64,000 nucleotides of DNA from Prevotella sp. (GCA_031285625.1 JAITVV010000084.1:64001-128000); one strand, 5' to 3'. Shown: positions 6,791 to 64,000, counted from the stretch's first letter. The notes: generated from the letters alone by a model not told the origin. Translations and numbers: made by a program.

Positions 6791-6802
6791 AGCTTAAATA
6801 AA

Positions 6803-6837: not shown

Positions 6838-6856
6838 ATTATATATACTATTCACT

Positions 6857-8050: not shown

Positions 8051-8175
8051 TATTGCATTTTTAATTATTAAAACACTTTTCTTAATTTCCAGATCAGTCA
8101 GATATTCATGTATTAATATACAACATTTGTCTGTTTGAATAACAAAGGTATATATTATTTGGATGCAATGAAATA

Positions 8176-10306: not shown

Positions 10307-11833
<1,527 letters not shown>

Positions 11834-11844
11834 AGAACTAACAT

Positions 11845-12093: not shown

Positions 12094-12097
12094 ATTT

Positions 12098-12508
12098 ATG
12101 AACCAATTCAAGGCTAGATTATTTTCAGGATTAATAGGTTACGGACTACTGGTTGGAGCGATTGTAGCTATTATACTACACAATTTCTTTCCGGGATTTA
12201 GCTGGAACTGGTATTTAGGAATTTTCCTTTTCTTTATTGTGGTTGAAACCTTTATACTTAATCTGGTAGAAAAGAGCAGTCATAGTGAGGACAAAAAACG
12301 ATTGGTGAATATATATACCCTGACAAAAGCCATTAAAATAATATTGTCTCTGGTATTTGTTCTGGTCTATTATATTATAGAGAGATCATACAATATAAAA
12401 ATGTTCATCATCATATACATAGTATTTTACTTATTGTTTTTAATAGCGGAAACATTTTTGTTTACGAAAGTTGAAAAGCATATTAAAATAAAGAATAATA
12501 ATGAGTAA
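12098..12508 (+). CDS. Membrane protein in the atp operon (AtpI-like)
   Basis: 4 TM segments between atpC and atpB; ATG at 12098 preferred to the upstream alternative start. Confidence 0.7.
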   Translation: MNQFKARLFSGLIGYGLLVGAIVAIILHNFFPGFSWNWYLGIFLFFIVVETFILNLVEKSSHSEDKKRLVNIYTLTKAIKIILSLVFVLVYYIIERSYNIKMFIIIYIVFYLLFLIAETFLFTKVEKHIKIKNNNE

Positions 12509-45310: not shown

Positions 45311-46633
45311 ATGAAAATAGCTATAGTAGGCACGGGATATGTGGGCCTCGTTACAGGAACCTGTTTTGCAGAGATGGGTACTGAGGTTTTCTGTGTCGAT
45401 ATCGATAAAAATAAGATTGAAAAGCTAAAACAAGGTATAATTCCCATCTTTGAGCCTGGCTTGGACGAAATGGTTGAACGCAACCATAAAGCCGGACGCT
45501 TGCAGTTCACGACTGATTTAAGTTCAATTTTGAATGAAGTCGACATTGTTTTCTCTGCTGTTGGAACCCCCCCTGATGAAGATGGTAGCGCTGACCTAAA
45601 GTATGTTTTAGATGTAGCCCGTACTGTTGGACAGAACCTGAATAAATACATGGTTATTGTCACCAAAAGTACTGTCCCGGTAGGGACAGCCAAACTGGTG
45701 AAAAAGACAATACAAGACGAACTGAATAAAAGGGGATTATCTGATCTGAAATTTGATGTGGCTTCTAATCCAGAGTTCCTAAAAGAAGGTGCGGCCATTA
45801 CAGATTTTATGCAGCCCGACCGCGTTGTTGTCGGAGTAGAATCGGAAGAGGCTAAACGCTTAATGGAAAAATTGTATAAACCTTTTACTTTAAATAACTA
45901 TCGAATTATTTATACAGATATTCCTTCTGCAGAAATGATTAAATATGCAGCAAACGCAATGTTGGCAACCCGGATCAGCTTCATGAACGATATAGCCAAT
46001 ATGTGTGAAATAGTAGGAGCCGATGTAAATATGGTTCGCAAGGGTATAGGAGCGGATGCCCGTATCGGATCAAAATTTCTTTATGCAGGATGTGGATATG
46101 GAGGAAGTTGTTTTCCCAAAGATGTAAAAGCATTAATTCATACTGCTAATAAACTTGGTTACAAGATGCAGATACTTGAGGCCGTAGAAAATGTAAATGA
46201 GTTCCAGAAAAATATACTCTTTGATAAGCTGATGAAGTATTATAATAACGATATAAAAGGTAAAACAATCGCAGTCTGGGGGTTAGCATTTAAACCTAAA
46301 ACAGATGACATGCGAGAAGCACCATCATTAGTATTGATCGACAGGATTATCAAAGCCGGGGGAAAAGTGAGAGCTTATGACCCCGTAGCGATGGAGGAAG
46401 CCAAGAAACATCATTTGGGCGACTCTGTTATATATGCGAAAGACATTTATGATGCCACATTAGACGCCGATGCAATCCTTATGGTGACAGAGTGGAACGA
46501 GTTCCGGTTACCAACTTGGGAGGTCATTAAGAAAACTATGAAAAAGCCTGTAGTCTTTGATGGTAGAAACATCTACAATAAAGAGGAAATGAATGAAATC
46601 GGATTTGATTATTTCGGTATCGGTATAAAATAA
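45311..46633 (+). CDS. ugd: UDP-glucose 6-dehydrogenase
   Basis: GTGYVG, KSTVP, NPEFLKEG, GGSCFPKD. Confidence 0.96.
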   Translation: MKIAIVGTGYVGLVTGTCFAEMGTEVFCVDIDKNKIEKLKQGIIPIFEPGLDEMVERNHKAGRLQFTTDLSSILNEVDIVFSAVGTPPDEDGSADLKYVLDVARTVGQNLNKYMVIVTKSTVPVGTAKLVKKTIQDELNKRGLSDLKFDVASNPEFLKEGAAITDFMQPDRVVVGVESEEAKRLMEKLYKPFTLNNYRIIYTDIPSAEMIKYAANAMLATRISFMNDIANMCEIVGADVNMVRKGIGADARIGSKFLYAGCGYGGSCFPKDVKALIHTANKLGYKMQILEAVENVNEFQKNILFDKLMKYYNNDIKGKTIAVWGLAFKPKTDDMREAPSLVLIDRIIKAGGKVRAYDPVAMEEAKKHHLGDSVIYAKDIYDATLDADAILMVTEWNEFRLPTWEVIKKTMKKPVVFDGRNIYNKEEMNEIGFDYFGIGIK

Positions 46634-46639
46634 GTAACA

Positions 46640-47311
46640 ATGATTATAGCAGAAGGCATTACAAAAAGTTTCGGCTCATTAAAAGTATTGAAAGGTATTG
46701 ATCTTCATGTTGCAAAAGGTGAAATCATATCAATAGTTGGGGCCAGTGGTGCAGGAAAAACAACCCTTCTTCAAATAATAGGAACACTCGATAAAGCGGA
46801 TAGTGGAACTATATCGATCAATGATCAAAAACTAAATAGCCTGAGAGACACACAACTCTCTGATTTCAGAAATAAAAATATTGGATTTGTATTTCAGTTT
46901 CACCAACTTCTACCTGAATTTACAGCCTTAGAGAATGTAATGATTCCGGCCCTGATAGGTAAGACTAAAGAATCCCAAGCAAAACAAAAGGCAAAAGAAC
47001 TACTGGACATGCTGGGGCTTTCAGGCCGTATAGGACACAAACCAAATGAGCTTTCAGGCGGAGAGAAACAACGTGTAGCTGTGGCCCGCGCCCTGATAAA
47101 CGATCCGGCTATTATTCTGGCCGATGAGCCTTCGGGAAGTTTGGATACAGAAAATAAAGAAGAATTACATCAATTATTCTTTAAGTTACGGGATACTCTC
47201 GGACAAACGTTCGTAATTGTCACACATGATGAACATCTGGCCTCTATAACGGACCGTACTGTACATATGCGTGATGGCCTGATTATTGACAACCTAACAG
47301 AATCTTTATAA
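46640..47311 (+). CDS. ABC ATP-binding protein, LolD-like
   Basis: [28 protein letters not shown]. Confidence 0.9.
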
Positions 47312-47314
47312 ACT

Positions 47315-47851
47315 ATGCAGTCCTCTGATAAACGGCTTTATCAGATCGCTCTCACACAGGTTGCGGGAGTTGGTGATATTATTGCCCGCAAACTCTTACA
47401 GATAATAGGTGATGAAGAGGCTATTTTCAAATCAAATAGAAAATCACTGATAAGTACAGGTATTTCATCAAAGATAGCAGATGAGATACTAAATACGAAA
47501 GTGCTCGAAAGAGCAGAAAAAGAACTGAACTTTGTAGAGAAAAACAAAATAAGCACTTATTTCATCAGTGATAAAGACTATCCACATCGCCTCAAAGATT
47601 GTAGTGATGCTCCTATTCTACTCTACTTCAAGGGTAATGTAAATTTTAATGCAGAAAAGGTTATCAGTATTGTTGGTACCAGAAAATCGACAAGTTATGG
47701 TAATAGCTTTTGTGATTCGTTTCTGAAAGATATATCCTCCATTTTTCCAGACACATTAATTGTAAGCGGACTGGCCTATGGTATAGATATACAGACTCAT
47801 CAATCGGCATTGAAATATAATCTGCCTACAGTCGGAGTACTGACATATTAG
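47315..47851 (+). pseudogene. dprA: dprA 5' fragment, interrupted by the integrated element
   Basis: YP..LK...DAP..LY.KG, IVGTRK.T.YG, IVSGLAYGID..H, PTVGVL, then stops (TY*) at 178 aa where DprA normally continues (AHGLD..YP) to roughly 370 aa. Confidence 0.9.
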
Positions 47852-47857
47852 ATGTAT

Positions 47858-47887
47858 TTTGCAGTATATATTTTTTTCATATCTTTG
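47858..47887 (+). promoter_or_regulatory. Host-type sigma-A promoter for the integrase
   Basis: TTTG (47858-61), 18 nt, TATCTTTG (47880-87), 17 nt before the ATG. Confidence 0.55.
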
Positions 47888-47904
47888 ATTAAAAATTAAA
47901 GGAT

Positions 47905-49761
47905 ATGGGAAAAGTAATATTGTTAATTAGGGTAAGTACTGACAGGCAAGAATATGAAGCACAGACCACAGAGTTAGTACAGTTTGTTAAATCATTTGGT
48001 TATGGTGATAATGACATAATATTGATTCAGGATAAAGAATCAGCTATCAAGTTATCAGAAGAAGAAAGGCAAGGATTAAATAAGATGAAAGAAGCCATTG
48101 TTAATAATGATGGCAATATTGATGCTGTATATTGTTGGGAGTTATCACGCTTATCAAGACAACCAAAGATATTATATTCTATCAGGGATTTATTATTAGA
48201 AAAAAGAATTAATTTAATAGTAAAAGAACCATTTTTAAAATTATTGGATGATAATAAAGAACCTGTATCTACATCAATGATTCAGTTTGGATTCTTCATT
48301 ACATTGGTTGAAAATGAAATGAGGGATAAGAAAGCAAGGTTTGATAGGGGTAGAAAAAATAAAGCATCACAAGGTAAATATGTAGGCGGTTATATTCGAT
48401 ATGGATATACAATAGATTCCAATAAGAAGTTTATTATAAATGAAGATGAAGCACAAATAATAAGGCTTGTATACAATTTATATGAGACGGGTAAATATTC
48501 ACATAGGACAATAGTAGCTGAATTGAAAGAATTGGGGTATGGTAATGATATTGCTAATATTGGCAAGGTACAGAACATATTGAATGCAGAGGAATATACA
48601 GGTGTTACCAAGAATAAAAAATTAAACATATCTTTTCCAATAATCATATCAAAGGAACAATTTAATATATGTAGGCAAATAAGCAATGGGAATAATGATA
48701 AGTTGAATAAATCAAGTGAGATATATTATTCACAGTTATTATTGGAATGTTCTTGTTGTGGTAAGCATTTACATCCAAAGAAATCAGTAAACTTATATGG
48801 ATGTCCTGATAGGACTGTTTTAAATGGTTATCAGATGGATAATATAATTGAGAAGTGTGTAGACCAAAACTATTTAAATATGTCTATAATGGATAGTTTA
48901 TTATGGTATGTGGCAAAAGAAAAAGAAGCAATTACAATATTATCTTCCACTGAGGAAGAAATAAATTTAAATAATTTAAAGATTGAAGATTTAAAGAAAA
49001 AAGCGGATAGCATTTATAATAGGTTAGATGATTTAAAAAAGAGAAGAAGCAGATTAGGTTTATCCTTCAGTGATGGAATGATAGATGAAGAAGCATATAG
49101 CAAAAGAAAGCAATCATTGAATGAAGAAGAAAATTTAATTAATAGTGATAAGTTGAATTATATAAATGAGATTGAAAGATTAGAAAAAGTTAATGCTAAT
49201 ATTCATTCCAATTTAATTAATATGAATAATTGGAGAGATATAAATGAGGGCAAGAATATATTAAAGAATTTGGATATTATTATTGGTGAACAATTGGATA
49301 AGATTGTTGATGATAAGACAAGATATAATATAATCAGGAAACAAGTAAAGAATGTTGTTGTTAAAAAGATTGATGATATAACTAAACAGTTGGTTATATA
49401 TTATAATGATGAAAAGTTTCAAAAAGAAAGTTTCTTTTATGAAAAGAAATCCAAACAATCAAAGCCATCCATATACAGGTTTAGCAACAAGACCATATTT
49501 GATATTAGGTCACGTGATAATAAAGATTATGAAATTAAATTTCCAATTGTAAAAGAATATAAAGGCAAGCCACAATTAGGGCAATATGATAAGATAAAAG
49601 ATAAGATGAAACAAGACCCTGAATATGCTGAGAGGAAAAGAAAGAAAGGATATTATTATACAAGGTGTTGGAAGATAAAGAATGATACAAAATTAACAAC
49701 ACAGCAAAAAGAAGAACAAATAAATAATTTAACTTCAAAATATAAAGAATGGATTATCTAA
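47905..49761 (+). CDS. Large serine recombinase (integrase)
   Basis: RVST catalytic Ser, ELSRLSR, YGY recombinase domain, CSCCG...C zinc ribbon, coiled coil. Confidence 0.95.
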   Translation: MGKVILLIRVSTDRQEYEAQTTELVQFVKSFGYGDNDIILIQDKESAIKLSEEERQGLNKMKEAIVNNDGNIDAVYCWELSRLSRQPKILYSIRDLLLEKRINLIVKEPFLKLLDDNKEPVSTSMIQFGFFITLVENEMRDKKARFDRGRKNKASQGKYVGGYIRYGYTIDSNKKFIINEDEAQIIRLVYNLYETGKYSHRTIVAELKELGYGNDIANIGKVQNILNAEEYTGVTKNKKLNISFPIIISKEQFNICRQISNGNNDKLNKSSEIYYSQLLLECSCCGKHLHPKKSVNLYGCPDRTVLNGYQMDNIIEKCVDQNYLNMSIMDSLLWYVAKEKEAITILSSTEEEINLNNLKIEDLKKKADSIYNRLDDLKKRRSRLGLSFSDGMIDEEAYSKRKQSLNEEENLINSDKLNYINEIERLEKVNANIHSNLINMNNWRDINEGKNILKNLDIIIGEQLDKIVDDKTRYNIIRKQVKNVVVKKIDDITKQLVIYYNDEKFQKESFFYEKKSKQSKPSIYRFSNKTIFDIRSRDNKDYEIKFPIVKEYKGKPQLGQYDKIKDKMKQDPEYAERKRKKGYYYTRCWKIKNDTKLTTQQKEEQINNLTSKYKEWII

Positions 49762-49802
49762 CGATAATCCATTTTTTTATGTATATAAGGTAAATATCAA
49801 TA
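49748..49802 (+). promoter_or_regulatory. Element repeat unit 1: hairpin + TATGTATAT-N5-AAATATCAATA
   Basis: AATGGATTATC-taac-GATAATCCATT, T run, motifs at 49778-86 and 49792-802. Confidence 0.8.
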
Positions 49803-49817
49803 ATATAAATTTGATAT

Positions 49818-50558
49818 ATGATAAAGATAACAATTGATAATGTTGATTACAATATACCTTCTGAATGGTCAGATGTAAAATTATCCCAGTATGAAAAATG
49901 GTTTGAATGTGACATAAAAGAAAAGGAAGATGAAATTGCATTTGTATCTAATGTATCAGGAATTGATTTAAACCTATTAAAAACGCTTCCATTGAGTTTT
50001 TATAATGATTTGGTAGATATAATAGGATTCTCATTAAAAGATGCTAATATGCTTCCTAAATCGAATATAATAATTGATGGTATTCAATATTCAATTAACT
50101 CAAGGAATGAATTAACATTGGATGAATGGGTAGATACAGAAGCTGTATTAAAAGGAAATGATAATAAGTTAAGTTCAGTATTAGCAATTGTATGTAGACC
50201 AACAGGTGAAATATATAATAGTAATAGATTATCTGAAAGGATTGAATTATATAAGAATATTACAATGGATAAGTTGTTTCCCTTATTCAGTTTTTTTTTG
50301 ACCTTAAAAGAACAATATCAAAAGATTATGAATACCTGTTTAATGGTTCAGGAAGTAACAAACCAATTGCACCTGCATATAGAGAATTTAGTAAAAAATG
50401 GGGGTGGTATAAGCAGATTGCAGAATTGGCGAATGATAATATTCAAGAAATGGATAACATTCTCAAACTCAAAGTTATTGAAGTATTTAACTTCCTTTCT
50501 TATCAGGTTGATAAGCAAAAAGCAAAAGAAGAACAACAAAAGTTTGAAGAACAATTAA
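49818..50558 (+). CDS. Phage structural/assembly protein (tail-chaperone-like) with -1 frameshift site; alternative product ends at 50581
   Basis: N-terminus Y.IP.EW.DV.L.QY; T9 run at 50291-99; both downstream frames open. Confidence 0.65.
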   Translation: MIKITIDNVDYNIPSEWSDVKLSQYEKWFECDIKEKEDEIAFVSNVSGIDLNLLKTLPLSFYNDLVDIIGFSLKDANMLPKSNIIIDGIQYSINSRNELTLDEWVDTEAVLKGNDNKLSSVLAIVCRPTGEIYNSNRLSERIELYKNITMDKLFPLFSFFLTLKEQYQKIMNTCLMVQEVTNQLHLHIENLVKNGGGISRLQNWRMIIFKKWITFSNSKLLKYLTSFLIRLISKKQKKNNKSLKNN

Positions 50559-50590
50559 GAAAGAATAATATGAATAATTAAAATAATATA

Positions 50591-51187
50591 ATGATAAAAA
50601 AGATAATATATTTATTTGAAAGGTTATCCAAACAGCATAAATTAATTCAATCATTCTACTATAACCGCAATTATGAAATTGGTAGTGGCAATGAAAAGCA
50701 TCCTTTATTATGGTTGGAAGACCCGATGTATATAAATATAACAGGTTCAAATAATAATATAATTGAAGCAGATATAAATTTCAGTGTGTTATTGATACCA
50801 AATGAAGATACAACCTTTGTAGATTGTCAGGATTTAGCATTTAGTACAGGTCATAACATCATAGAATATATTAAAAAGTATAAACCATTTGGATTTATAA
50901 TAAAATCAGGTACAGAATCTGCATTAACATTGCAACATTATTATGATAATAATACAGCAGGTGCAAGATTTTCGTTTGTTTTACAGAATGCCAATCCTGC
51001 AAGTATATGTTTATTGGATGAGCATTTTGAATCAGGTGTATTTAATTGTGATTTCAATGATGATTATTTAAAATATTGTAATGATAAAGAAGAAGATAAG
51101 GTTAATGATTTTGATGTAACCCCTGCAAATAATTGCACAACCTTTGTAGATAAATTACCTGACTTCACATTAAGGACATCAAGATGA
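50591..51187 (+). CDS. Phage protein, tail-completion/terminator-like
   Basis: Size, position and beta-rich pattern (YPLL-like 'HPLLWLE'); function inferred. Confidence 0.45.
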   Translation: MIKKIIYLFERLSKQHKLIQSFYYNRNYEIGSGNEKHPLLWLEDPMYINITGSNNNIIEADINFSVLLIPNEDTTFVDCQDLAFSTGHNIIEYIKKYKPFGFIIKSGTESALTLQHYYDNNTAGARFSFVLQNANPASICLLDEHFESGVFNCDFNDDYLKYCNDKEEDKVNDFDVTPANNCTTFVDKLPDFTLRTSR

Positions 51188-51654
51188 ACAATAAAGTAAA
51201 AACCATATTAAAAGCCATTAGTGAGGATATTGAAGTTCTTGCACAAATCATATTTGAGACTGATACAATAAGTAATAATACCAAGGTAAGTAAAAATACT
51301 TTAAAAGATAGTCAGTTATCGAAAGATGTAGAAGTAAAGATACAAGAATTGGGTAATCCTATAATAGATATAATGTTCAATCATTATATAGTTTATTTAG
51401 AATGGGATAGACCACCAATGTATGGTAAGATGCCACCTATATCTGATTTACGTGATTGGGCTATTAAAAATGATATTCCTGATGATAATAGTACATTATA
51501 TTTGATAAGCAGGGCAATATGGAGAGATGGACATAAAGGCAGACCAATAACAAAAAACTTAATGATAGAGATTGAAGATAGGTTTGATAAGGAATGGTTT
51601 GATTTATTATTTGAAGGAATCATTGATGATTTAATTCAAATATTTAATGAATAA
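51184..51654 (+). CDS. Phage neck/tail-completion protein (HK97 gp10-like)
   Basis: GKMPPISDLRDWAIK...LISRAIWRDG pattern typical of these proteins. Confidence 0.55.
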   Translation: MNNKVKTILKAISEDIEVLAQIIFETDTISNNTKVSKNTLKDSQLSKDVEVKIQELGNPIIDIMFNHYIVYLEWDRPPMYGKMPPISDLRDWAIKNDIPDDNSTLYLISRAIWRDGHKGRPITKNLMIEIEDRFDKEWFDLLFEGIIDDLIQIFNE

Positions 51655-51662
51655 AATATATA

Positions 51663-51715
51663 GAGTATCATTAGATACTCCATTCTTTTTTATGTATATG
51701 TTATAAATATCAATA
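51663..51715 (+). promoter_or_regulatory. Element repeat unit 2
   Basis: GAGTATC-atta-GATACTC, T run, TATGTATAT at 51691-99, AAATATCAATA at 51705-15. Confidence 0.8.
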
Positions 51716-51729
51716 TTTAAAAAATTATA

Positions 51730-53691
51730 ATGTCGAATATTATAACTACAGATATAGCAACAATAGTTGATAGTGATAAGATTACATTGGTTAATAATCC
51801 ATCATTTATACAGTTTATAGGTAATCAGGGTCTTAATGAAAAATTAGATACATTGGTTATTAAATTCAATGGGATAATGCAACCAAATGATAATTTTGAA
51901 AATTTATATTATATTGGTTTCACTTATACTGACAATGGTATTCTATATAATGTTAAATATGTTCAAACTGTTGATGCAGAATATGCTGCACAATATAATA
52001 ATATCTTCTATCAAGGTAATACAGTAGTTGATACAGTTAGGAATTTACAGCAGAAGTTATTAGATAATAACTTCTTGGTTAATAATTTTATCATTAGTGC
52101 TAATAATGATTTGCTATCTATTAAGCCAAAAGTAGGTGATGCAAGCAAAGCATATACATTATCATATATAACAGGTTATGCAACCACAACTGACCCACAT
52201 ATTGAAATAAATGGTGCTATAACATACATTACACCATCAGTTATATCAAGTGGTACAGAAGAAGTTGATAATACCATACCAACATTTACATTAACAGTGA
52301 ATAGTTTTACATCAAATGATGCATTACCTGCTGCTGCTTTATTAACCTTTGTTGAAAACAACAGTAAAAACAGTTATAAAATACAGGGAACAACTGATAA
52401 AAGTTTGATTGATGGTAATAAAAATTACTTTTATCTTAATTCCAATCCTGTAATAACCTGTAATAACCTTATTCAGGCATTGTTAACAGTACCATTTTTC
52501 AAAAATAACTTCATTTTAAGTGTTGATGGGGATGAATTTTCATTGGTTGGTAAGCGAAATAACCCTAATTTTTCATTCAATGTTACATATAATCCATCAT
52601 TTTGCAGCATAAATAACACACAATATACAATAAATAACAGTAATGTATTATATAATAGTCAAATTGAGTTGGATATATACAAGAATAATCAGTATGTAAC
52701 CACTGTATCTAAGTCATATATTGATAGTGATGTATGGTTTGATGTAAATAATATATTAAATAGAACAATGAAATCATATCCAAACTGTTTATTCTTACCA
52801 AATAATATATTAGACAGTGGTACAACGATGAAATATAATTACAATAGTAAGTATATTAAAAATTATGATACACAATTTATTAACTTCAGTGAAAATAAAT
52901 ATGTTGTAGATGGCTTTGTTAGAACATTAGAACCAAATGATATAAACAGTTATATTTATTCAGCAGATGAAGATGTTGAATGTAATATACTTACCAATAA
53001 GTTAGACAGGATATATAATATTGGTGAAGATATATCAGCTAATATTATAATAGAACCAAATGATGATACATCATATACAATTGGATTATTAATTAAATAT
53101 TATGAGAATAATAAATTAGTTAATGAAAATATAATTGATACTGATAATGGTAAAGACTTGATTAGTAGTATATATGTTACTGCTGATAAAATATTAATTA
53201 CAGACAGGACACAATTTATAGATGTTGTTTGGGTGAAGATACCAAATGAAAGCCCTGATGACTTTTATGAAATTTCATCTTATATCAGATATAAGATATT
53301 ACGTGAATGTAATGATAGTTATGGTTTTATGTTTTTGAATAAATTAGGGGGTTGGGATATATATTACTTCAATAGTGATTTCAATACAGAATTTAAAACT
53401 GAGGTAACCACTTCATTTAAAACATTGCAACCAAATTATAAACTTAGTGATACTTACGAAAAGGTTGAATTTAAAGAAACAGAAGAAACTTTTGCAATTA
53501 AATCAATGGTGAATAAAGAGACTGCTGAATGGTTAAAAGAATTATCAACAAGTAAATATGTATATTCATTATTTGATAATAATAGGTATGTGATTGTACA
53601 AGATTTTGATTTAAGTATTTCGGATAAAGATTTATTTGAGGTCACAATGAAATATACCTATTCTGACACATATAATACTATTTTAAAATAA
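51730..53691 (+). CDS. Phage tail structural protein
   Basis: C-terminal FLNKLGGWDIYYF...WLKEL..S..VY pattern seen in Bacteroidota phage tail genes; internal duplicated domain (T..NL.Q.LL...F..NNFI.S twice). Confidence 0.6.
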   Translation: MSNIITTDIATIVDSDKITLVNNPSFIQFIGNQGLNEKLDTLVIKFNGIMQPNDNFENLYYIGFTYTDNGILYNVKYVQTVDAEYAAQYNNIFYQGNTVVDTVRNLQQKLLDNNFLVNNFIISANNDLLSIKPKVGDASKAYTLSYITGYATTTDPHIEINGAITYITPSVISSGTEEVDNTIPTFTLTVNSFTSNDALPAAALLTFVENNSKNSYKIQGTTDKSLIDGNKNYFYLNSNPVITCNNLIQALLTVPFFKNNFILSVDGDEFSLVGKRNNPNFSFNVTYNPSFCSINNTQYTINNSNVLYNSQIELDIYKNNQYVTTVSKSYIDSDVWFDVNNILNRTMKSYPNCLFLPNNILDSGTTMKYNYNSKYIKNYDTQFINFSENKYVVDGFVRTLEPNDINSYIYSADEDVECNILTNKLDRIYNIGEDISANIIIEPNDDTSYTIGLLIKYYENNKLVNENIIDTDNGKDLISSIYVTADKILITDRTQFIDVVWVKIPNESPDDFYEISSYIRYKILRECNDSYGFMFLNKLGGWDIYYFNSDFNTEFKTEVTTSFKTLQPNYKLSDTYEKVEFKETEETFAIKSMVNKETAEWLKELSTSKYVYSLFDNNRYVIVQDFDLSISDKDLFEVTMKYTYSDTYNTILK

Positions 53692-53694
53692 ATG

Positions 53695-53748
53695 AATGGA
53701 GTATCATTAGATACTCCATTTTTTATGTATATATCCCAAATATCAATA
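53695..53748 (+). promoter_or_regulatory. Element repeat unit 3
   Basis: AATGGAGTATC-atta-GATACTCCATT, TATGTATAT at 53724-32, AAATATCAATA at 53738-48. Confidence 0.8.
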
Positions 53749-53764
53749 TTTTAAAATATTATAA

Positions 53765-56538
53765 ATGCAACTTATAGAATTTTATATCAATGATAGGTTA
53801 ATAGATTATACCAATGCAAATGATTTAGGAATTAAATTATCAAGACAAATTTTTAAGCCATCTGAATTTACATCAAAAGATTCACAAATGTCTTATAAGA
53901 TAACCATTCCAAATAGTGTTACCAATAATGAGATATTCAATTATTCAAATGTTGAAGAAGTAAAAGATAAATTCAATTATGAATATACAGCAAAGGTATA
54001 TGTGGATAACATATTAATCTTTGATGGGTACTTTATGTTGCAGGAGATAACTGAAAAAAAATATATAGGTAATTTATATATTCCTGTATATAAGACCATC
54101 AAAGATATATTTGGTAATAATGTGATGAATAAACCATCTTCCAATACTGAAAAAAACAAATGGTTATTTAATATGGATGGTGCATCAGATATAAGTGCTT
54201 GGAATGAACAAGTATTAACCAACTTTGAAAATAACAGGGCATCTGATTGTTTATTCCCATATATATTATATGGATTGATTCCAAAAATAAGTATTAATCC
54301 AAATGATTATGTAAATGGTGAAATGGTTGGTGAATATACTGATAAGAATGTATATGATAAATATGCAAGATTGGGTTATGAAGATATACCACCTGCAATG
54401 AATGTATTGGAGACAATTAAACATATGTTTGTATCTAATGGTTTAACTATTTCAGGTACAGCATTTAACGATGATAGGTTGAAACATCTATATATGTCAT
54501 ATTCCAATCCAACAGATTATATACAAGAATGGAATTATGGTGATTTATCCACCATTGAAGTAAACGGTTCTTGGTCAATGTGGGATATGAATAATACATT
54601 TGAATGGCAAATTTCACAAAACAGTGATAGTTATGGTTCATATTATGGTACTAATATATTAGATTCAAATAGATTTATATTAAATTACTATACTGATACA
54701 GGGACAAATACCATATATAATTCTTATGATGAGATAAAAAATGCTGTAACAAGAAAAAGAAATAATTTAAGTATTACCATACCTCAATCAGGCTACTATA
54801 AAATAACCTTATCGGGTAATTTATCATTAAATACAAGTGTTTACCGAGGTGAATTAGTTGATAATATAACAGGTAAAAAATTCACAGGTGTTATACAGCA
54901 TAATAATGACACTCGTAATAATAGCTTTCAAAGGTCTATGTATGAGATTCAGGTATTACGTGATTTTGGTGAGGGTAGTTTTACATATGATAAAGTTGTA
55001 GGTCATTATAATCAACCTAATTTTCCTCAGACACAAGCAGGTGATACTAATCAATATCCTAAATATTATCCATTTGATGGTGAGGATATGATTATAGACC
55101 CTCAAACAAATATTAATTTTATTAGTGGTTTGCATTGGGGTAATTATGATAATGAATTAAAAGATTATAATCCAATTGGGGGTACATATCCTTCAAATTA
55201 TATGTTTATGAAAAATGGATATAGTTGGAATAATACTTTTTCTCAAAGGCAAAAAATATACCACGTGTATGATAGTGAGAAATCAGCAGGTACAGATGAT
55301 GGTGTTAATTACAGATGTTATAATTTAGATGACTTAACCAATCAATTAGTAACTAATGATGTGGCATTACATTATGGTAAGATAGAAGATATGCCAAATA
55401 ATAATTATTGTGCTCAATCTAATGGAATATATGGTGAGGGGTTGGTACAAAGTGTAATATGGTTGGATAAGGGTGAACATATAACTGTTGCTGTTGTAGG
55501 TAATATGGGTGACTACAAGAAGCAATCATCAGACCATACCCATTTTGATGCAAATATTGTGTTGATAGATAGTGTTAATTTTGATTTAAAAATTGAAAGT
55601 TTCAGAACTGATATTCAATGGAATAATTTTGACAATGATGGAAATTATGATTCAGATAATGTATTATCTTGGAATGATGCTAATACATTCCAAAATGGAT
55701 ATATAGATTTATGTAAGTTTCTTCCATCAGAAGTTAAAATTAATGATTTCTTGGATAATTTTTGTAAGGCATTTAATTTGAATTTGATACAACCAACACA
55801 AAATAATTTTGAATTAAATGTAAAACAGACCAAACAGTTAGGTACAAGTGATATAGTATCATTTGAAGATAAGTTTAATATTAAATTAAGAACAAATGAA
55901 CCATTAGGCTTACCAAGTGAGATTAATATTAAATGGTCTATTGACGAGGAAGAAGAAGGATATGTTGCAAGTGGTGGTTATACAGGTAATGGACAATTTC
56001 AAACAGGTACTATTGGTGGTTCAGTAAGTGAACAATCATCAACATTTAGTTATAATTGGTATAAGGATATTGATTTCTTTGGAGTTTCAGATAGTGTACC
56101 TGTGATATCCAAACACGAAGTATGGGAAAATGGTACAGAAGATTATGGTGAAATGCAGAAGAAATATTATTCAAATTTACCAATAAGATTTTTCTATCCA
56201 AATAGTTTAGTTGCTTGGAATAATGGTAATTATCATTATAATGTCTTCCAATTAGGTAATAATTATGTTGATTTGGTGAGTTTAAAAAATGAATATGACA
56301 TTACAACGATATCCATTTTGGATTATGAGAATAAACAGTATTCAATTTTGAATAATTATTTTACATTGATTACAACAAATAATACCAATTATACAATAAT
56401 AGAGACTTATTTGACACCTGAGGAATATCAATTATTAAATGGTAGGAATATTCAGATTTATATTATGTATCTTCAATTGACCAATATGACCCATTGATGA
56501 AATCACCATCAAAAATTAAATTGATTAGAAAAATATAA
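53765..56538 (+). CDS. Phage baseplate-hub/tail-tip-like protein; ORF ends at 56497 but the likely true C-terminus is in the -1 frame ending at 56538
   Basis: N-terminus I.L.RQI....F..K.S..SY.ITIP....NN.IF, later 'FLP..KI.DFL...CK.FNL'; see finding. Confidence 0.6.
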
Positions 56539-56567
56539 ATATCAATATTTTTTAAAATATAATATTT

Positions 56568-56771
56568 ATGAAAGATTTATTTTGTGAAGATGGAAGTTGT
56601 GATATTTCCAAAGGTAAATTATGTATTCGTAGAGTTATAGGGGCATTAGGATTTATAGCTTTTATTGGATGTATTTATTTGGGAATTTATCATCCATCAG
56701 TTGATTTATTGGCAATGTTAAGCGCATCATTAATTGGTTTAACAACGGTTGATAAATTTATTAAAAAATAA
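56568..56771 (+). CDS. Small 2-TM protein, holin-like
   Basis: 67 aa, two hydrophobic helices, basic C-terminus; preceded by AAATATCAATA at 56537-47. Confidence 0.55.
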   Translation: MKDLFCEDGSCDISKGKLCIRRVIGALGFIAFIGCIYLGIYHPSVDLLAMLSASLIGLTTVDKFIKK

Positions 56772-56791
56772 TATATTAAAATGAAATGAAT

Positions 56792-56846
56792 GGGAACACA
56801 ATAAAGTGTTCCCCTTTTTTTTATGTATATGTGGGAAATATCAATA
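56792..56846 (+). promoter_or_regulatory. Element repeat unit 5
   Basis: GGGAACAC-aataaa-GTGTTCCC, T run, TATGTATAT at 56822-30, AAATATCAATA at 56836-46. Confidence 0.8.
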
Positions 56847-56865
56847 TTTCAAATTACTATTTGAA

Positions 56866-59800
56866 ATGAGTGATAAAAAAACTTTCTCAATAACCATTGA
56901 TGGTTTGGAAAAAGCATATAATGATGTACTTAAATTAAGTGATGCACTGAAAGCAATTAACAGTGTTAATGCTTCTGTTGCTACAACTAATAATGAAGTA
57001 ACATCATCAATTACATCTAAAAGTAAAGCTACTGATGAATTATCAAAGGCACAGGAAAAATTAAATGCTTATGATGCTGAATATCAAAGACAATTAGCTG
57101 AAACAAAAGCTGAATTATCAGCAAATAATAAAGAAATTCAAAATAATATTAAAGTAACACAAGCATTAGCAACAGTTGAAGCAGGTGTTACAGATACTTA
57201 TGCTGATAAACAAAGGTTATTAACTGCATTGGGGACTACGATTAAAAATATGTCCACCACAACTGATGCTGAGATAGCTCAACAGAATGAATTAATTGCA
57301 CAATATAAGGCATTAAATGATGAATTAACAGCTACTGATGAACGTATGGGTAATAACCAACGCAAAGTAGGTGCTTACGAAAATGCAACCAAATCATTGA
57401 AAGGTCAGTTAAGGGAAATGACAGAGGAATTGGCAACAATGATTGCTAATGGTGTTCAACCAACTGATGCTGCCTATCTTGATTTAGCGACACGAGCAGG
57501 GGAATTACGTGATGCAATGGGTGATGCACAAGGTGCTATTACTAAATTTGGTTCTGATACAAGGGGATTAGATAATATTATATCAGTCGGACAAGGTATT
57601 ACATCCATATTTGGTACTGCACAGGGTGTAATGTCAATGTTTGGTCAATCGGGTGAACAGGTTGCTCAATCTATGGAGAAGATGATGGGTGTAATGACTA
57701 CCTTACAATCACTCCAAGAATTGCAAAATCAATTAACTACACAAGGTACTGTGTTCAATAAATTATATACTACTGTATTACAAGCGATGGGATTAGCTAA
57801 AAAAGCTGATATAGCTAATACAGTATCACAGGCAGCAGCAACAACAGGTGCAAGTGTAGCAACAGGTGTTGCCACAACAGCAATGAAAGCATTTAGGATT
57901 GCATTAGTTAGTACAGGTATTGGTGCTTTAATTGTTGGTTTAGGTCTATTAATATCCAATTTTGATAGTGTTAAAAAATGGGTGGTTGATTTAGTTCCTG
58001 CATTAGGCAATATGGGTGAGGCTTTTGATGAAGTTAAATCTGTTGTGATGGGTATTGGTCAGGCATTATTGGAATTTGTTATTGCTCCATTTAAGACTTT
58101 GATAGCTGTTGTACAGGGATTTATGGAAAATGGTATTGATGGCGCATTAGCAGCAGGTGAAGCACAGGTTAAAAGTTCACTTGATGTGGTTGGTAATTAT
58201 GAAAAAGGTTATCACGACCAAAGTGTTAGGAATGCAGAAGCAGCAGCCAAAGCAAAAGCAGAAGCATCAGCAACTGAATTAGACAATTTAATAAAAGATA
58301 ATGAAGCTAAATTGGGTTCAGATTGGAAATATTCAACTGAAGGTAGAAAAGCATATGCTAATTTCTTTGATGCTAAAAAAGCAATGTATGGTGATGATAA
58401 AGAAAAGTATGCTGAGGCTCAAAGAGAGGCTTGGAAATTTATGGCTGAGACTACCAAACACGATGCAGACGAAAGAAAAAAACGTTCTGATGCAGGTAAA
58501 CAGGCAGCACAAGAAGCTAAACAAAGATTGGATGATTATAAAAAATCATTGGAAGCATTCACCAAACAAACGAATACATTAGAGATTAATAATGAAAAAA
58601 CAAGAATTACCAATGCAAAAGATGCTGCTGAAAAAATGGTTGCTACAACCAAAGATGAGTTAACCAAACGAAATAATGCTATAACAGAAGCCTATGGTAA
58701 ACAACAGATTCTACAACAAAAATTAAATTTAGATGAAATTGCAGCAGTTGATAAACAATATAATGAATTGATTGAAAAAGCTAAAAAAGCTAAAAAAACT
58801 AAACAAGATATAAGTAAAATTGAAGAAGAAAGACAAAATCTATTATCTGAATTAAGAACAAAATTCACATTAGAAGAAATTAATTTAAATAAAGAAAAAA
58901 ACGAAAAAATTAAATCTTCCAATAAAGATTTTGATGATGATGAAAAAGAGAGGGCTGAAAATGCTAAAAAGTTAGCACAAGATAAGGTTAATTTTGAGAT
59001 GGAATTGATTGATAAACAATTTAAAACCATTAATGAATTAAAAGAAAACTTTACTGCAAGGGGTGGAGCATTAGATTTAATTGATGTTGACCAAACAAAA
59101 GCAAATCTTGCTGTCATTCGTGATGAATTGGATAAACAAAAAACCTCATTAGTAAAATATAAAGATGAATTAGAGAAAAATACTACACTTGACCCCAAGG
59201 CAAAAGAAAAAGCATTGGATGATATTAATGCTAAAATTAAAGTTAATGCAAAAGATATTGCTGATAATACCCAACAACAAACCCAAGTTATGACTAACTA
59301 TTGGGCTGATTTTTCGGATAAAGTTGGTGGTTATATATCTGTTGTTAGTGATTCTTTAAATTCAATATTTGAAACAGTTGGTTCTTTCTTTGATATGAAG
59401 TTAGAAGAAGCACAAGAAAAATTAGATGAAATATCTGAAAAATATGATGAAACTGTTGAATTACAAGAAGAAAGCAATGAAAGGTTATTAGCATTACAAG
59501 AAGAAGCTAAAAATGTATCAGGTGGTAGGGCATTAGTTGTACAGGATGAAATTTCTCGTGAAATGGCATTAAATAAAGAACTTGCCAACCAAGAAAAACA
59601 ATTAGCAAAAGAAAAAGAAGCCCGTGAAAAAGAAGTTGCCAAAATTCAAAAACAACAAAAGAAAGCTGAATTGATGGGAAATATTGTTAGCGGTTTATCA
59701 GGTGGTGCATTAGCTGTAATTAATGCATTACAGGTACAACCATTCCCATTAGGGTTAGCATTAGCTGCTGTTGCAGGCGCAATGAGTGCTGTACAGGTTG

Positions 59801-60243
59801 GTATAATGTCAGCTCAATTAGGTAAGTTAGAAAAGGGTGGATTATTACAAGGTAAACGACATTCAGAAGGTGGTATTCCTGTTGGTAATACAGGTATTGA
59901 AGTTGAAGGTGGTGAATATGTTACCAATCGCAATACAACATCAAAGAATTTGGGTCTATTAACCTACATAAATAGTCAGGATAGGGAATTAGGTATTAAT
60001 GATTTTGTTAGTTATTATGATGATAGTACAGGTAAAATAATGCCTAATCCAAGATTTAGAAAAATGTTTGCTGATGGTGGACAAATGGATATATCAAATA
60101 TATCAAATTCATCAGGTACAAACAATGATGCAATCTTAAATGCATTATCAGGTATTAATTTTTCACCTGTTGTTAGTGTGGTTGATATAATTGATTCTAC
60201 TGCACAAGTAACAAGTGTAAGAGATTCAGCAGGATTTTCATAA
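56866..60243 (+). CDS. Tape-measure-like protein
   Basis: Long Ala/Lys/Glu helical protein, ALVSTGIGALIVGLG segment, C-terminal KGGLL.G.RH..GG...EVEGGE; start moved to ATG 56866 (MSDKK), downstream of the repeat unit. Confidence 0.8.
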   Translation: MSDKKTFSITIDGLEKAYNDVLKLSDALKAINSVNASVATTNNEVTSSITSKSKATDELSKAQEKLNAYDAEYQRQLAETKAELSANNKEIQNNIKVTQALATVEAGVTDTYADKQRLLTALGTTIKNMSTTTDAEIAQQNELIAQYKALNDELTATDERMGNNQRKVGAYENATKSLKGQLREMTEELATMIANGVQPTDAAYLDLATRAGELRDAMGDAQGAITKFGSDTRGLDNIISVGQGITSIFGTAQGVMSMFGQSGEQVAQSMEKMMGVMTTLQSLQELQNQLTTQGTVFNKLYTTVLQAMGLAKKADIANTVSQAAATTGASVATGVATTAMKAFRIALVSTGIGALIVGLGLLISNFDSVKKWVVDLVPALGNMGEAFDEVKSVVMGIGQALLEFVIAPFKTLIAVVQGFMENGIDGALAAGEAQVKSSLDVVGNYEKGYHDQSVRNAEAAAKAKAEASATELDNLIKDNEAKLGSDWKYSTEGRKAYANFFDAKKAMYGDDKEKYAEAQREAWKFMAETTKHDADERKKRSDAGKQAAQEAKQRLDDYKKSLEAFTKQTNTLEINNEKTRITNAKDAAEKMVATTKDELTKRNNAITEAYGKQQILQQKLNLDEIAAVDKQYNELIEKAKKAKKTKQDISKIEEERQNLLSELRTKFTLEEINLNKEKNEKIKSSNKDFDDDEKERAENAKKLAQDKVNFEMELIDKQFKTINELKENFTARGGALDLIDVDQTKANLAVIRDELDKQKTSLVKYKDELEKNTTLDPKAKEKALDDINAKIKVNAKDIADNTQQQTQVMTNYWADFSDKVGGYISVVSDSLNSIFETVGSFFDMKLEEAQEKLDEISEKYDETVELQEESNERLLALQEEAKNVSGGRALVVQDEISREMALNKELANQEKQLAKEKEAREKEVAKIQKQQKKAELMGNIVSGLSGGALAVINALQVQPFPLGLALAAVAGAMSAVQVGIMSAQLGKLEKGGLLQGKRHSEGGIPVGNTGIEVEGGEYVTNRNTTSKNLGLLTYINSQDRELGINDFVSYYDDSTGKIMPNPRFRKMFADGGQMDISNISNSSGTNNDAILNALSGINFSPVVSVVDIIDSTAQVTSVRDSAGFS

Positions 60244-60284
60244 TTACCTATAATAATTAAAATATCAATATAGTAAAAATTAAT

Positions 60285-61478
60285 ATGATAATTACGACAA
60301 CAGATAGTTCAGTTAAAATTGAAGACAATAGTGGTATAGTTTGGACAGGTGGATTAAATACATTTGTATTAACTTATTCAGCACCTGAGGATAGTGTAAC
60401 ATTATTTGATGACACAAGATTAATAGCAACAGGTAAATTAACTGATTCAACCATAAATGGTACTCAGTTAACAGGTGATAATATTGATAGCGCATTACAG
60501 GATATATTTAGTACAGCAGGTAGTAATAGTGGTACAGGTGGTGTTAGTTCAGTTAATGGTTATACAGGTAATGTAGCTTTAACTGCTGCTGATGTAAATG
60601 CTTATACACAAGACCAAGTAGATACTATGTTAGGTCAGTTAAATACAGCAGAATTTGCAGGTCCATATGCAACAATAGATGTTATACCAACACCATATGA
60701 TACAAATGACTTATATTTAGTTGGTGATGCAGTTCCATATGCTATCTATGCGAATGTTGCAGGTGTCTTAACACAAATAGGTAGTTCATCTGTTGATTTA
60801 TCTGATTATTATACTAAAGATGAAATTGATTCAATTGGTGAAGCTGACCCAATTTTTAATGCTTGGAAAAATGGTACATCAGTTGTGATTGGTAGTTCTT
60901 CGACAGGTACAGGTATAGCCATTGGTAATATTGCACAAGGGGCAGGTATTGCAATTGGTAAAAATTCAGTAAGTTCAGCAAATAATAGTATATCACTTGG
61001 TAATAATGCAAGGTCATTAGGTACAGGTATAGCCATTGGTTATTTGGCAGCAGCTAATATTAATTATGGTGTTGCTATTGGAGCATCTTCTTCAACAATT
61101 GCAACTAATGGTGTTGCTATTGCATATAATGCCTACAATGCAGGTAATAATGGTGTTGCTATTGGCTACAATGCAAGTACATTAGGTCAAAATTCGGTTG
61201 CATTGGGAACACAATCACAGGCAAAAAACCCTAATGAGATAGGTATTGGAGCAAATAATAAAATTGTATCAGGTTCAACTGCTGAACAAAATACACAATT
61301 TACTGTTGCATCATATTCTGCTGATACTTCAACTAAAAGAAATGCCCTAGAAATTCGTCAAAATGATGATATATGGATTTTTATGAATAATAATCAAGTA
61401 ATGATTCAAGATTATTTTAATCAAATAGAGGATTTAAAAGTACAAATAGAGGATTTAAGAGCACAAATAGGTGGGTAA
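60285..61478 (+). CDS. Tail fibre-like protein with YadA/Hep-Hag head repeats
   Basis: VSSVNGYTGNV.LTAADV, DLSDYYTK, many (G/S)(I/V)AIG repeats, C-terminal coiled coil; AAATATCAATA at 60260-70. Confidence 0.7.
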   Translation: MIITTTDSSVKIEDNSGIVWTGGLNTFVLTYSAPEDSVTLFDDTRLIATGKLTDSTINGTQLTGDNIDSALQDIFSTAGSNSGTGGVSSVNGYTGNVALTAADVNAYTQDQVDTMLGQLNTAEFAGPYATIDVIPTPYDTNDLYLVGDAVPYAIYANVAGVLTQIGSSSVDLSDYYTKDEIDSIGEADPIFNAWKNGTSVVIGSSSTGTGIAIGNIAQGAGIAIGKNSVSSANNSISLGNNARSLGTGIAIGYLAAANINYGVAIGASSSTIATNGVAIAYNAYNAGNNGVAIGYNASTLGQNSVALGTQSQAKNPNEIGIGANNKIVSGSTAEQNTQFTVASYSADTSTKRNALEIRQNDDIWIFMNNNQVMIQDYFNQIEDLKVQIEDLRAQIGG

Positions 61479-61507
61479 TATAATTTTAAAATATTATAAA
61501 TGAAATG

Positions 61508-61553
61508 AAAGGTGGACATGTCCACCTTTTTCTTTTTATATGAAATATCAATA
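61508..61553 (+). promoter_or_regulatory. Element repeat unit 7
   Basis: AAAGGTGGAC-at-GTCCACCTTT, T run, AAATATCAATA at 61543-53. Confidence 0.75.
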
Positions 61554-61571
61554 AAGTAAAAAATAATTGAT

Positions 61572-63230
61572 ATGACCATAAATGAATTAAAATATCTAAT
61601 TACAACTAAAATATATACAAATGGTATTGAAGATATAACAGCAGAAGATTTACAACAAGTGTTATTGGTTATGGCAGATAGTGCATTTACTGATGTTATT
61701 GACAGATTAGATGTAACACGTGTTGATGCAGCATTATCAGCTAATCAAGGTAAGATATTGAATGATAAAATTACTTCAATATTAAATGATACATCTGATA
61801 TTCATCTTACCATTAATAGTATTCTATCAGAATTGCTTACATTATCAGATAATATTGCAACTGAGGTTAATGATAGAAAAACTGCTGACACAGCCATATT
61901 AGTTAGTTTAGATAATGAAATTACCAACCGCACAAATGGTGATATATCAATTAATACAGCCCTAACAAAAGAAATTCAAGATAGAAAAGATGCAGATACT
62001 GCCATTAATACAACTATTACAAGCAATGTTAATACTATTAATGGTAAAATTAATACTTTAACCAATAATTTAACTGCTGAGGCTGCTATTCGTGAACAAG
62101 CTGATACAGCATTAGGTGTAAGAATTGATAATGAAACTACCAATAGAATAAATTATGACCAAAGATTGGATGATAAAATATCAACTGAGGCTACTGACAG
62201 GAAAAATGGTGATATTCAGATTCAATTAACATTAAATAATGAAATTGAAGAAAGAAAATCAGATGTAAACGCTTTAAATACAAGGGTTACAATTGAAGTT
62301 CAAGATAGAACCAATGCAGATAAATTACTTAATCAACGAATTGATAATCTTCCTGTAATTGATTTAACACCATATTATACAAAGGATGAGGTTGATGATT
62401 TAATTGATAATATTGAAGCAGGTGAAGTAGATTTATCTGATTATTATACTAAAGAACAAGTAGATGAAGCCATTGATGAAGCAGTTACAGGTGGTACAGT
62501 CGATTTATCTAATTATTATACAAAAACTGATGCTGATGCCTTATTAAATAATAAAGCTGATAAATCAACAACTTATAACAAGACAGAAGTAGATAGTAAA
62601 TTTACACCATATTATACATCAGCACAAGTTGATAGTAAAATTGCTGCTATTCCTACTGTTGATTTAACTAATTATTATGATAAGGATGAAATTGATGACC
62701 TATTAGATAATTTATCAGCAGGTGATGTTGATTTAACAAACTATTATACTAAGTTACAAGCAGATAGTTTATTATCAAATAAAGCTAATGTAGGTGATTC
62801 ATATACCAAGACAGAAGTTGATGGTAAAATTGCTGCTATTCCTGCTACTGATTTATCAAATTATTATACCAAGACAGAAGTAGATAGTTTAATACCTGAT
62901 TTATCTAATTATTATACCAATGATGAAATTGATAATTTGCTATTAAATAAGGCTTCTGCTATTGATGTAGCAGGTAAACAAGATAGATTAACAGCAGGTA
63001 CTAACATTACAATAGCAGGTAATGTAATATCAGCAAAAGATACTGTATATGATGATACTGCACTACAATTAATGGTATCACAAAAGCAGAATCAATTAGT
63101 TGTTAGTGATGGTTTAAATTTGGATAGTACCAGATTAACTTTGGATATCCAACACGTGATATTAACACAGGCAGAATTTGATGCATTAACCACTAAATCA
63201 ACCACAACAATATATTATATAAAAGGATAA
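61572..63230 (+). CDS. Upper tail fibre-like protein
   Basis: ALSANQGKIL, about 8 E..(D/N)R..(A/G)D repeats, about 10 DL(S/T).YYTK-type repeats, C-terminal LTQAEFDALTTK...IYYI adaptor motif. Confidence 0.75.
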   Translation: MTINELKYLITTKIYTNGIEDITAEDLQQVLLVMADSAFTDVIDRLDVTRVDAALSANQGKILNDKITSILNDTSDIHLTINSILSELLTLSDNIATEVNDRKTADTAILVSLDNEITNRTNGDISINTALTKEIQDRKDADTAINTTITSNVNTINGKINTLTNNLTAEAAIREQADTALGVRIDNETTNRINYDQRLDDKISTEATDRKNGDIQIQLTLNNEIEERKSDVNALNTRVTIEVQDRTNADKLLNQRIDNLPVIDLTPYYTKDEVDDLIDNIEAGEVDLSDYYTKEQVDEAIDEAVTGGTVDLSNYYTKTDADALLNNKADKSTTYNKTEVDSKFTPYYTSAQVDSKIAAIPTVDLTNYYDKDEIDDLLDNLSAGDVDLTNYYTKLQADSLLSNKANVGDSYTKTEVDGKIAAIPATDLSNYYTKTEVDSLIPDLSNYYTNDEIDNLLLNKASAIDVAGKQDRLTAGTNITIAGNVISAKDTVYDDTALQLMVSQKQNQLVVSDGLNLDSTRLTLDIQHVILTQAEFDALTTKSTTTIYYIKG

Positions 63231-63231
63231 T

Positions 63232-64000
63232 ATGGGAATATACAGCACAAATGATATAAGTTCAATATATATTGGTGGTACTAATATAATAAAGGTATTT
63301 GCAGGGGATATACAAGTTTTTCCTGCTGCTGTAATACCACCTGTAACAGATGAAATTGTTAAAGTAGGCTTTTCAGATGAAATTGGTTCATCTGAAATGG
63401 TATATGTAACCCCATCAGGACAGTATATAATGGGCTTAAATAACTATGAATCCCCAAATACTTATTATACAACAAAAGTATATTCAATAAATAATTCATT
63501 ATCAACATCAAAAGCATTAACTTCTACTGCTAAACCTTATGCAGGTTCAGTTATTGGTAGTGATTTATATATTTATACCAATAACTCAAGTAATGTTGAT
63601 TTTATCTATAAGTATAATGATGCAACTTCATCCTTTACCAAGATAAATTCAAGTACAACTAAGGTTATAAATAATATATTTGATATTGATGGTGTAATAT
63701 ATGCTGTTGGTAATAGGTATGTATTTACCATTTCAAATAATAATTTAGTTGTATTAGCTGATACTACTACTTCCATTAATTTTTATTACGGGGTTAAAAT
63801 AGGTAGTGATATTATATTTAATGCGCAAACAGGTATGTATAAATATAATGGTTCAACCACAACTAAAATATTGAATTTTGGGAGTGTATATAAGCCATAT
63901 TTCGCTAATAATAAATATTATTATCCTTATGGTTCAGGTAGTATTAGCGCATTTTATGTTATTGATGAAAATTTGATTGATAGTATTAAGTCCTTTACAG
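63232..64000 (+). CDS. Putative receptor-binding protein (partial; not in ORF track)
   Basis: Open from ATG 63232 to the window end: MGIYSTNDISSIYIGGTNIIKVFAGDIQVFP..., then propeller-like repeats (GSDLYIY, DGVIYAVG, MYKYNG). Confidence 0.7.
   Translation, partial: MGIYSTNDISSIYIGGTNIIKVFAGDIQVFPAAVIPPVTDEIVKVGFSDEIGSSEMVYVTPSGQYIMGLNNYESPNTYYTTKVYSINNSLSTSKALTSTAKPYAGSVIGSDLYIYTNNSSNVDFIYKYNDATSSFTKINSSTTKVINNIFDIDGVIYAVGNRYVFTISNNNLVVLADTTTSINFYYGVKIGSDIIFNAQTGMYKYNGSTTTKILNFGSVYKPYFANNKYYYPYGSGSISAFYVIDENLIDSIKSFT

Follow-up and report, generated by a model that had tools for sequence, protein, structure and literature searches.

A phage-like element with a serine integrase interrupts dprA in a Dysgonomonas-like bacterium and has probably been fixed in place by deletion of its right end

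The systems closest to the locus described here are known from Listeria and Bacillus subtilis. In Listeria, phages A118 and phi10403S perform active lysogeny at comK, which codes for a competence regulator, and in B. subtilis the integrase of phage SPbeta, SprA, is a serine integrase. The requirement of the RecA loader DprA for transformation is established in phyla other than the one considered here. In this paper we describe a phage-like element that carries its own large serine integrase and interrupts the dprA gene in a window of 64,000 nucleotides (nt), by which we mean the whole stretch of DNA that was analysed (positions 64001-128000 of contig JAITVV010000084.1, here C86, from assembly GCA_031285625.1; the contig is 147,790 nt long). 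A preliminary description of the window had proposed a serine-integrase prophage acting as an excisable switch of dprA. The phage-like element, its intact integrase and the interruption of dprA stood up to the analysis; excision and restoration of the gene at this locus did not. In the reading that we favour, to which we give a probability of about two in three, the integrase inserted the phage in dprA and a later deletion took the right end of the element, leaving a locked prophage and two pseudogenes.

Excerpts of two published studies place the Listeria prophage and SPbeta within host coding sequences, comK and spsM, respectively (PMC7397523, PMC5499854). The locus in the window resembles both in having a serine-integrase prophage inside a host coding sequence, but differs from them in its target, dprA, in the order of its host, the Bacteroidales, and in what surrounds the prophage: comK and spsM have their two halves on either side of the prophage and are rebuilt by its regulated, precise excision, whereas the window locus is without the 3' half of dprA and without attR. 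Further work describes comYC and ssbB as sites of prophages, comM as a site of islands, and islands that themselves carry DprA homologues (PMC12378983, PMC5341023, PMC11472951, PMC5347184, PMC12637031). Like the element in the window, the pneumococcal prophages in comYC and ssbB and, in Acinetobacter, the AbaR and defence islands of comM break a gene of DNA uptake or recombination, with targeting that recurs across lineages (PMC12637031, PMC11472951); the window differs from these cases in that the target is dprA and is accompanied by a deletion, and the transformability of Dysgonomonas, the genus concerned, is presumptive. No mobile element inserted in dprA is described in the abstracts and passages that the literature search covered, and supplements may list more sites. 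According to excerpts of the respective reports, DprA is required for transformation in Riemerella (PMC8459023), and competence has been reported for Porphyromonas gingivalis (PMC3268665). By analogy, the insertion in the window would destroy a protein that is required for transformation elsewhere.

The left end of the element comprises the following features, with positions counted from the first letter of the window.

47315..47851, + strand: 5' fragment of dprA, with codons 1-177, two junction codons (T, Y) and the stop codon TAG; identified from PF02481, TIGR00732 and the alignment of relatives
47842..47848, no strand: left breakpoint, presumed attL crossover zone; identified from alignment with the dprA of 9 relatives and from the drop in GC
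47849..47904, + strand: spacer upstream of the integrase gene (int) with promoter-like boxes TTTG (47858-47861) and TATCTTTG (47880-47887); read from the sequence
47905..49761, + strand: large serine integrase of 618 amino acids (aa), apparently intact; identified from Pfam Resolvase and Recombinase and from phrog_95

The dprA open reading frame (ORF) codes for 178 aa, the last host-like residues being ...LPTVGVL (final CTG at 47840-47842), after which the sequence reads ACA TAT TAG. Its product matches only profile positions 2-104 of 212 in Pfam DNA_processg_A (PF02481, E 1.2e-29) and positions 2-104 of 220 in NCBIfam TIGR00732 (83.6 bits, with a cut-off of 191), and the Rossmann-type domain of DprA is halved at PF02481 position 104 of 212 in a genome without a second DprA. 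A DprA match was found in 30/30 related genomes, with similarity to the window fragment ending at residue 176-177; the DprA of relatives is about 373 aa long. The host gene is split by the element at codon 177. GC content, taken in 1-kb intervals, falls from 0.37-0.40 at 45500-47999 to 0.25-0.29 at 48000-56999. The breakpoint can be placed only to 47842-47848 in a DNA alignment with the dprA of 9 relatives, because ACATAT matches the GCACAT of these relatives at 4/6 bases. All this agrees with the preliminary description, which had read dprA as normal up to LPTVGVL and divergent thereafter, had noted the more AT-rich DNA that follows, a drop that we locate at 47842-47848, and had placed a large serine recombinase 53 nt after the dprA stop; the alignment of the junction with relatives identifies the 178-aa product as a truncation. 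The same description took an imperfect inverted repeat, TACTG...CAGTA, as a marker of attL. This 5-nt inverted repeat exists; equivalents occur in 1170/5000 shuffles and in 270/996 local 32-nt windows, which is the frequency expected by chance, and we dropped it as an att signature.

The integrase ORF starts with the ATG at 47905 and reads inward into the element. It matches Pfam Resolvase (PF00239, residues 5-159, E 3.9e-16) and Recombinase (PF07508, residues 180-259, E 3.4e-07), and residues 3-603 of 618 align with phrog_95, annotated 'integrase' (E 5.8e-47). Residues R9, S11 and R14 of the RVSTDRQ block, the E79-R85 block and the cysteine cluster C282/C284/C285/C300/C318 are all invariant among 9 homologues. 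With its predicted catalytic domain, Recombinase domain, Cys-rich region and long C-terminal extension, the 618-aa protein has the domain composition of a large serine recombinase. The 8 closest homologues, compared as proteins only, show 49-64% identity; single-protein and alignment scans of genome contigs and viral contigs gave no relatives of the integrase. In serine-integrase phages, attP normally sits close upstream of int. The TTTG and TATCTTTG boxes in the spacer resemble what we take to be the Bacteroidetes-type promoter consensus, and are putative only. The architecture of the left junction would correspond to a serine-integrase attL, and we read it as a real one because the sharp break lies 53-60 nt upstream of int, which reads inward, a layout that recurs in the Dysgonomonas genome G050 described below. 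This candidate attL is the only att site present; a cognate pair of attL and attR with inverted-repeat P arms was not found at the element, which counts against an intact recombination system and not against the assignment to the integrase family. No tRNA gene lies at the left or the right junction.

The element spans C86 111,842-848 to about 144,729 (position 16,729 of locus L024), that is 32.9 kb, with low GC throughout to about C86 144,700, and it ends 16.7 kb beyond the window, still within C86. At the right junction (L024 16,729/16,730) a phage gene and a host gene are both cut. The last phage ORF (L024:16582-16851, + strand) matches a small phage protein family only over its first ~50 residues. 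A search of 1.84 billion representatives returned 14 hits to this family at E<=1e-3, of which 12 are 85-108 aa long; 12 proteins were used in the alignment, the 723-aa and 212-aa hits being left out. Residues 2-50 of the ORF align to residues 4-52 of the homologues, and the motif NCRPCxTFW is the final shared block. Of about 94 codons expected for the phage gene, about 50 remain, and the DNA beyond is the antisense strand of an M28 peptidase gene. The latter, on the minus strand, is 3'-truncated after about codon 251: similarity ends at residues 248-252 of 263, the peptidase of relatives has 332-357 aa, and PF04389 is covered from 1 to 103 of 193 here versus 1 to 189 in G050. Together with dprA, three genes are truncated at the two breakpoints. 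Near the right end, a search with an 18-mer, allowing <=4 mismatches to the reverse complement, found no inverted partner of the integrase-side arm. Judged by its sequence, the right junction is a deletion scar and not an attR.

The preliminary description had expected the rest of dprA at the far end of the element and its restoration upon excision, and neither expectation is supported; the absence of a dprA 3' remainder at the other end is the first of the findings that it had named as refuting it. The truncated phage gene abuts the truncated M28 gene at that end, and the 3' half of dprA is in none of the 96 contigs of the genome: tblastn with 3 full-length DprA sequences of relatives against all of them finds residues 1-178 only, a PF02481 search of the genome gives 1 match, and the survey of dprA across the genus agrees. 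The arrangement expected of a switch, with both gene halves at the ends of the element and an ORF rebuilt by precise excision, is absent. In the relative G013, the order UDP-glucose dehydrogenase-ABC-dprA-membrane protein-DUF1634-TauE-Gpx is the order and orientation of the flanks of the element, and in four further relatives (G004, G014, G015, G016) the M28 gene lies next to dprA and converges on it. The flanks are adjacent in relatives, and therefore the element sits at the dprA locus in place of host DNA. If the original arrangement was like that of G015, about 0.85 kb of host sequence is missing. The loss would be larger had it included a tandem M28 paralogue; two M28 matches are found in most relatives and one in this genome. 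The left host flank consists of two genes.

45311..46633, + strand: UDP-glucose dehydrogenase gene; identified from the Pfam UDPG_MGDP_dh N, central and C domains
46640..47311, + strand: ABC transporter ATPase gene, syntenic with relatives; identified from Pfam ABC_tran (E 2.1e-35)

A UDP-glucose dehydrogenase gene is also found upstream of the ABC-ATPase gene and dprA in the relatives G013 and G050.

We propose that the 32.9 kb are the remainder of a temperate, AT-rich phage, which would have been integrated by its own serine integrase into codon 177 of dprA in a Dysgonomonas-like bacterium of a termite-gut metagenome, with the left junction as the resulting attL. Later, or at insertion, an illegitimate deletion would have removed the right end of the phage together with attR, dprA codons 178 to ~373 and any intervening DNA. 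The same deletion would also have cost the convergent M28 gene its final ~85 codons, and at least ~0.85 kb of host DNA would have gone in all. We infer that site-specific excision was lost with it, because no attR remains as a partner for the integrase; dprA would no longer be restorable, and both dprA and M28 would be pseudogenes. Structural genes (portal, protease, fibre) are present and one end and an att site are lost, as in a defective (locked-in) prophage. The event looks recent, because both stumps are open frames and because P0136, a DprA that is 94% identical to the window fragment and intact at codon 177, reads through the insertion point. Comparisons of size suggest that the phage may have lost up to ~5 kb: CheckV gives ~38 kb for relatives, the contigs of the closest integrases have 37.7 kb, and at least 5 kb follow the DUF6808 gene in the collinear phage contig G183 versus 1.6 kb here.

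Several observations weigh against integration followed by deletion. The loss of phage DNA is at least ~130 nt, and a terminase was not recognised by Pfam, PHROGs or NCBIfam, so that the phage was not necessarily complete in other respects. The preliminary description had suggested looking for close homologues of the integrase next to split dprA genes, and such an association did not emerge, which speaks against a conserved specificity of this integrase lineage for dprA: none of 3 homologues at the family level lies beside dprA (34-35% identity; 169 other family genomes), and DprA fragments were found at 0/53 metagenome loci of integrase homologues (31-58% identity), many of them short-flanked. 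None of 105 short DprA-like proteins shares its longest-contig size with the closest integrase homologues, although this is a weak test. Lastly, the assembly has 96 contigs, 94.25% completeness and 3.85% contamination, and the loss of the dprA 3' half could be an assembly loss.

This last point would carry most weight if the locus were an ordinary prophage with both dprA halves, of which ~1-6 kb had been mis-joined or dropped at the right end through an assembly artefact or a mixture of strains. Such an error would be in keeping with a best-matching sequencing run that is a metagenome and with junctions read from the assembly. Five sequencing runs contain part of L024:12000-19790, and one of the five contains all of the words sampled. 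However, both junctions lie within one 147.8-kb contig, and the two flanks adjoin by synteny in relatives. The join interrupts two coding sequences that share no repeat, and a second DNA copy of the element was not found when it was compared with the genome by blastn. A dropped piece normally persists as a small contig, whereas the dprA 3' half is in no contig. We consider an artefact rather unlikely. A one-step origin, in which the integrase made neither junction and illegitimate or homology-assisted recombination (with imported DNA or another strain, for example) replaced the interval from dprA to M28, would account for the clearly illegitimate right junction and for the fact that no relative of the integrase was seen at dprA. 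Under this scenario, however, a random left break would need to land within ~55 nt upstream of int and spare both int and the promoter-like boxes, and the position observed is the normal attP position of serine-integrase phages, as in G050, so that we regard a one-step replacement as quite improbable.

The third alternative, a reversible switch in which precise excision of the prophage rebuilds dprA, could draw on the intact integrase adjoining a sharp dprA junction and on clean, restorable serine-integrase insertions in the dprA genes of two related species. Given an assembly that lacks the dprA 3' half and a right end in which a truncated phage gene is fused to a truncated M28 gene with no attR, an excisable switch at the window locus is not supported, and we judge it very improbable indeed. 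Integration by the serine integrase followed by deletion therefore stays our preferred reading of this locus.

Interruptions of dprA recur in the genus. Among 35 Dysgonomonas species genomes, 31 have a full-length dprA and 4 an interrupted one, at two sites: codon 177 in the window genome, and the position after ...AEIANSY (codon 255) in G050, G006 and G007. Site-specific targeting of dprA is thus recurrent in related lineages (4/35 genomes, two sites). In G050 (L159 = C7:56000-73000) an island of 9.85 kb, at ~3,600-13,440, lies between both dprA halves, with a 602-aa large serine integrase beside the 5' half, ~70 nt from the dprA junction. Perfect inverted arms of 14 nt are present in its attL and attR, fusion of the two host arms gives the consensus ...ANSYCKD... 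in frame, and the cargo consists of a small resolvase and a ShosA-like (DprA domain + HAD)/ShosT-like defence pair. In G006 (L161 = C95:32000-44000) the element, at ~2,290-9,770, also leaves both dprA halves, 7.5 kb apart; the integrase has 774 aa, is 60% identical to that of G050 and lies beside the 3' half, which corresponds to the reverse orientation, and the cargo includes a tyrosine recombinase, a DUF6642 protein and a SusD-like protein. The opposite orientations of the two islands would fit a palindromic TA core, which is hypothetical. G007 (L160, 1-2,366) has the same left junction as G050 and G006, at a contig end, and is partial.

The codon-255 islands are like the window element in that they occur in Dysgonomonas, target dprA and carry an inward-reading large serine integrase at a distance of tens of nt from the junction. 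They differ from it in the insertion site, in the integrase lineage (the serine integrase of G050 is 25% identical to that of the window), in being small and non-phage, in keeping both gene halves with attL and attR, and in their occurrence in either orientation. The serine-integrase elements of G050 and G006 could restore dprA, because both halves are kept. As a tentative extension, which we hold possible and no more, dprA may be a preferred landing site for large-serine-integrase elements in Dysgonomonas. At least two unrelated lineages, a phage and defence islands, would then have evolved to recombine with two different conserved motifs of dprA, between GVL and AHG and between ANSY and CKD, and the knock-out of DprA would protect the element from curing by incoming DNA; the insertions in G050 and G006 would be true excisable switches, and the window copy would be one that was fixed by deletion.

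Outside the genus, a split of dprA by a mobile element was found in 0/87 family genomes that are >=90% complete, and dprA is kept in 114/116 family genomes. DprA matches restricted to the 3' part in G152, G109 and G115 were rejected as insertions, since they coincide with an N-filled scaffold gap, the end of a contig and the start of a contig, respectively. Short DprA proteins from other assemblies (P0136, P0137, P0138, P0141, P0142) stop 3-7 residues after ...AEIANSY. Further DprA fragments end in ...AHGLD[R/T]I (P0145, with 105 members, P0146 and P0195) or in ...GVLTH (P0139), and such ends may be additional insertion sites or mere contig ends. P0139 (180 aa) was set aside as a second codon-177 case because ~100 partial proteins of 97-312 aa make one such end expected by chance; its H fits the intact consensus, and it may be a contig-end fragment.

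Elements in comK, comYC, ssbB and comM are central to the idea of a conflict between transformation and mobile elements, and the gene of the RecA loader, dprA, now shows the same pattern, in Bacteroidales, an order in which transformation has barely been studied. The window copy itself would be an evolutionary dead end, unable to act as a switch. It led to the restorable serine-integrase insertions in relatives, which offer two new integrase/att-site pairs and a testable system; if Dysgonomonas isolates are transformable, the cost and the benefit of an insertion in dprA would be directly measurable. In the window genome, which is without an intact dprA, a ComEC-like gene (C6:18126-18941, open frame of 657 aa) and a ComM-like gene (C15:29896-30186, open frame of 542 aa) are still open.

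Beyond the integrase, the body of the element within the window comprises the following.

49818..64000, continuing to C86 144,729, all on the + strand: phage-like genes; identified from Pfam Phage_fiber_rpt, Phage_tail_C and YadA_head
60285-61478, within the + strand block: fibre gene with YadA-head repeats; identified from Pfam
61572-63230, within the + strand block: tail fibre gene; identified from Pfam

Past the window, the element codes for an XkdF-like protease/scaffold, a portal and a tail fibre with S74 chaperone, and further proteins of the element are a BACON-domain protein, DUF6712, DUF5675 and DUF6808. As to a terminase, searches of PDB sequences with the ORFs of 653 aa and 910 aa gave no match, and an Atlas look-up returned viral hypothetical proteins only. 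The XkdF-like protein is matched at 37% over part of its length by a protein of the Nonlabens phages P12024L/S. The element is collinear with IMG/VR phage contigs (L035-L044) at 30-61% aa identity; the shared gene order begins with the ORF that follows int and takes in the portal, DUF6712 and DUF6808 genes. In 5 IMG/VR records searched, neither a Resolvase domain nor a DprA fragment was present. G183, the only one of these phages whose integrase region was compared, has a 387-aa tyrosine recombinase (L099:1-1163, - strand) in the exact place where the element has its serine integrase, a swap of the integration module between collinear phages.

Another, divergent relative of the phage is found elsewhere in this genome, at C52 ~302,100-322,800 (contig end 323,281). 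It shows 34-53% aa identity to 12 proteins of the element, in two blocks of opposite orientations, and is without a serine integrase homologue. The penultimate gene of the element (L024:15947-16585, + strand) has a weak sigma-70/ECF-like match (TIGR02937, E 1e-05, below the cut-off), and its product may be a phage regulator. The fibre protein with YadA-head repeats (60285-61478) and the BACON-domain protein (L024:3343-5088) point to a putative carbohydrate or adhesin-like recognition of the host.

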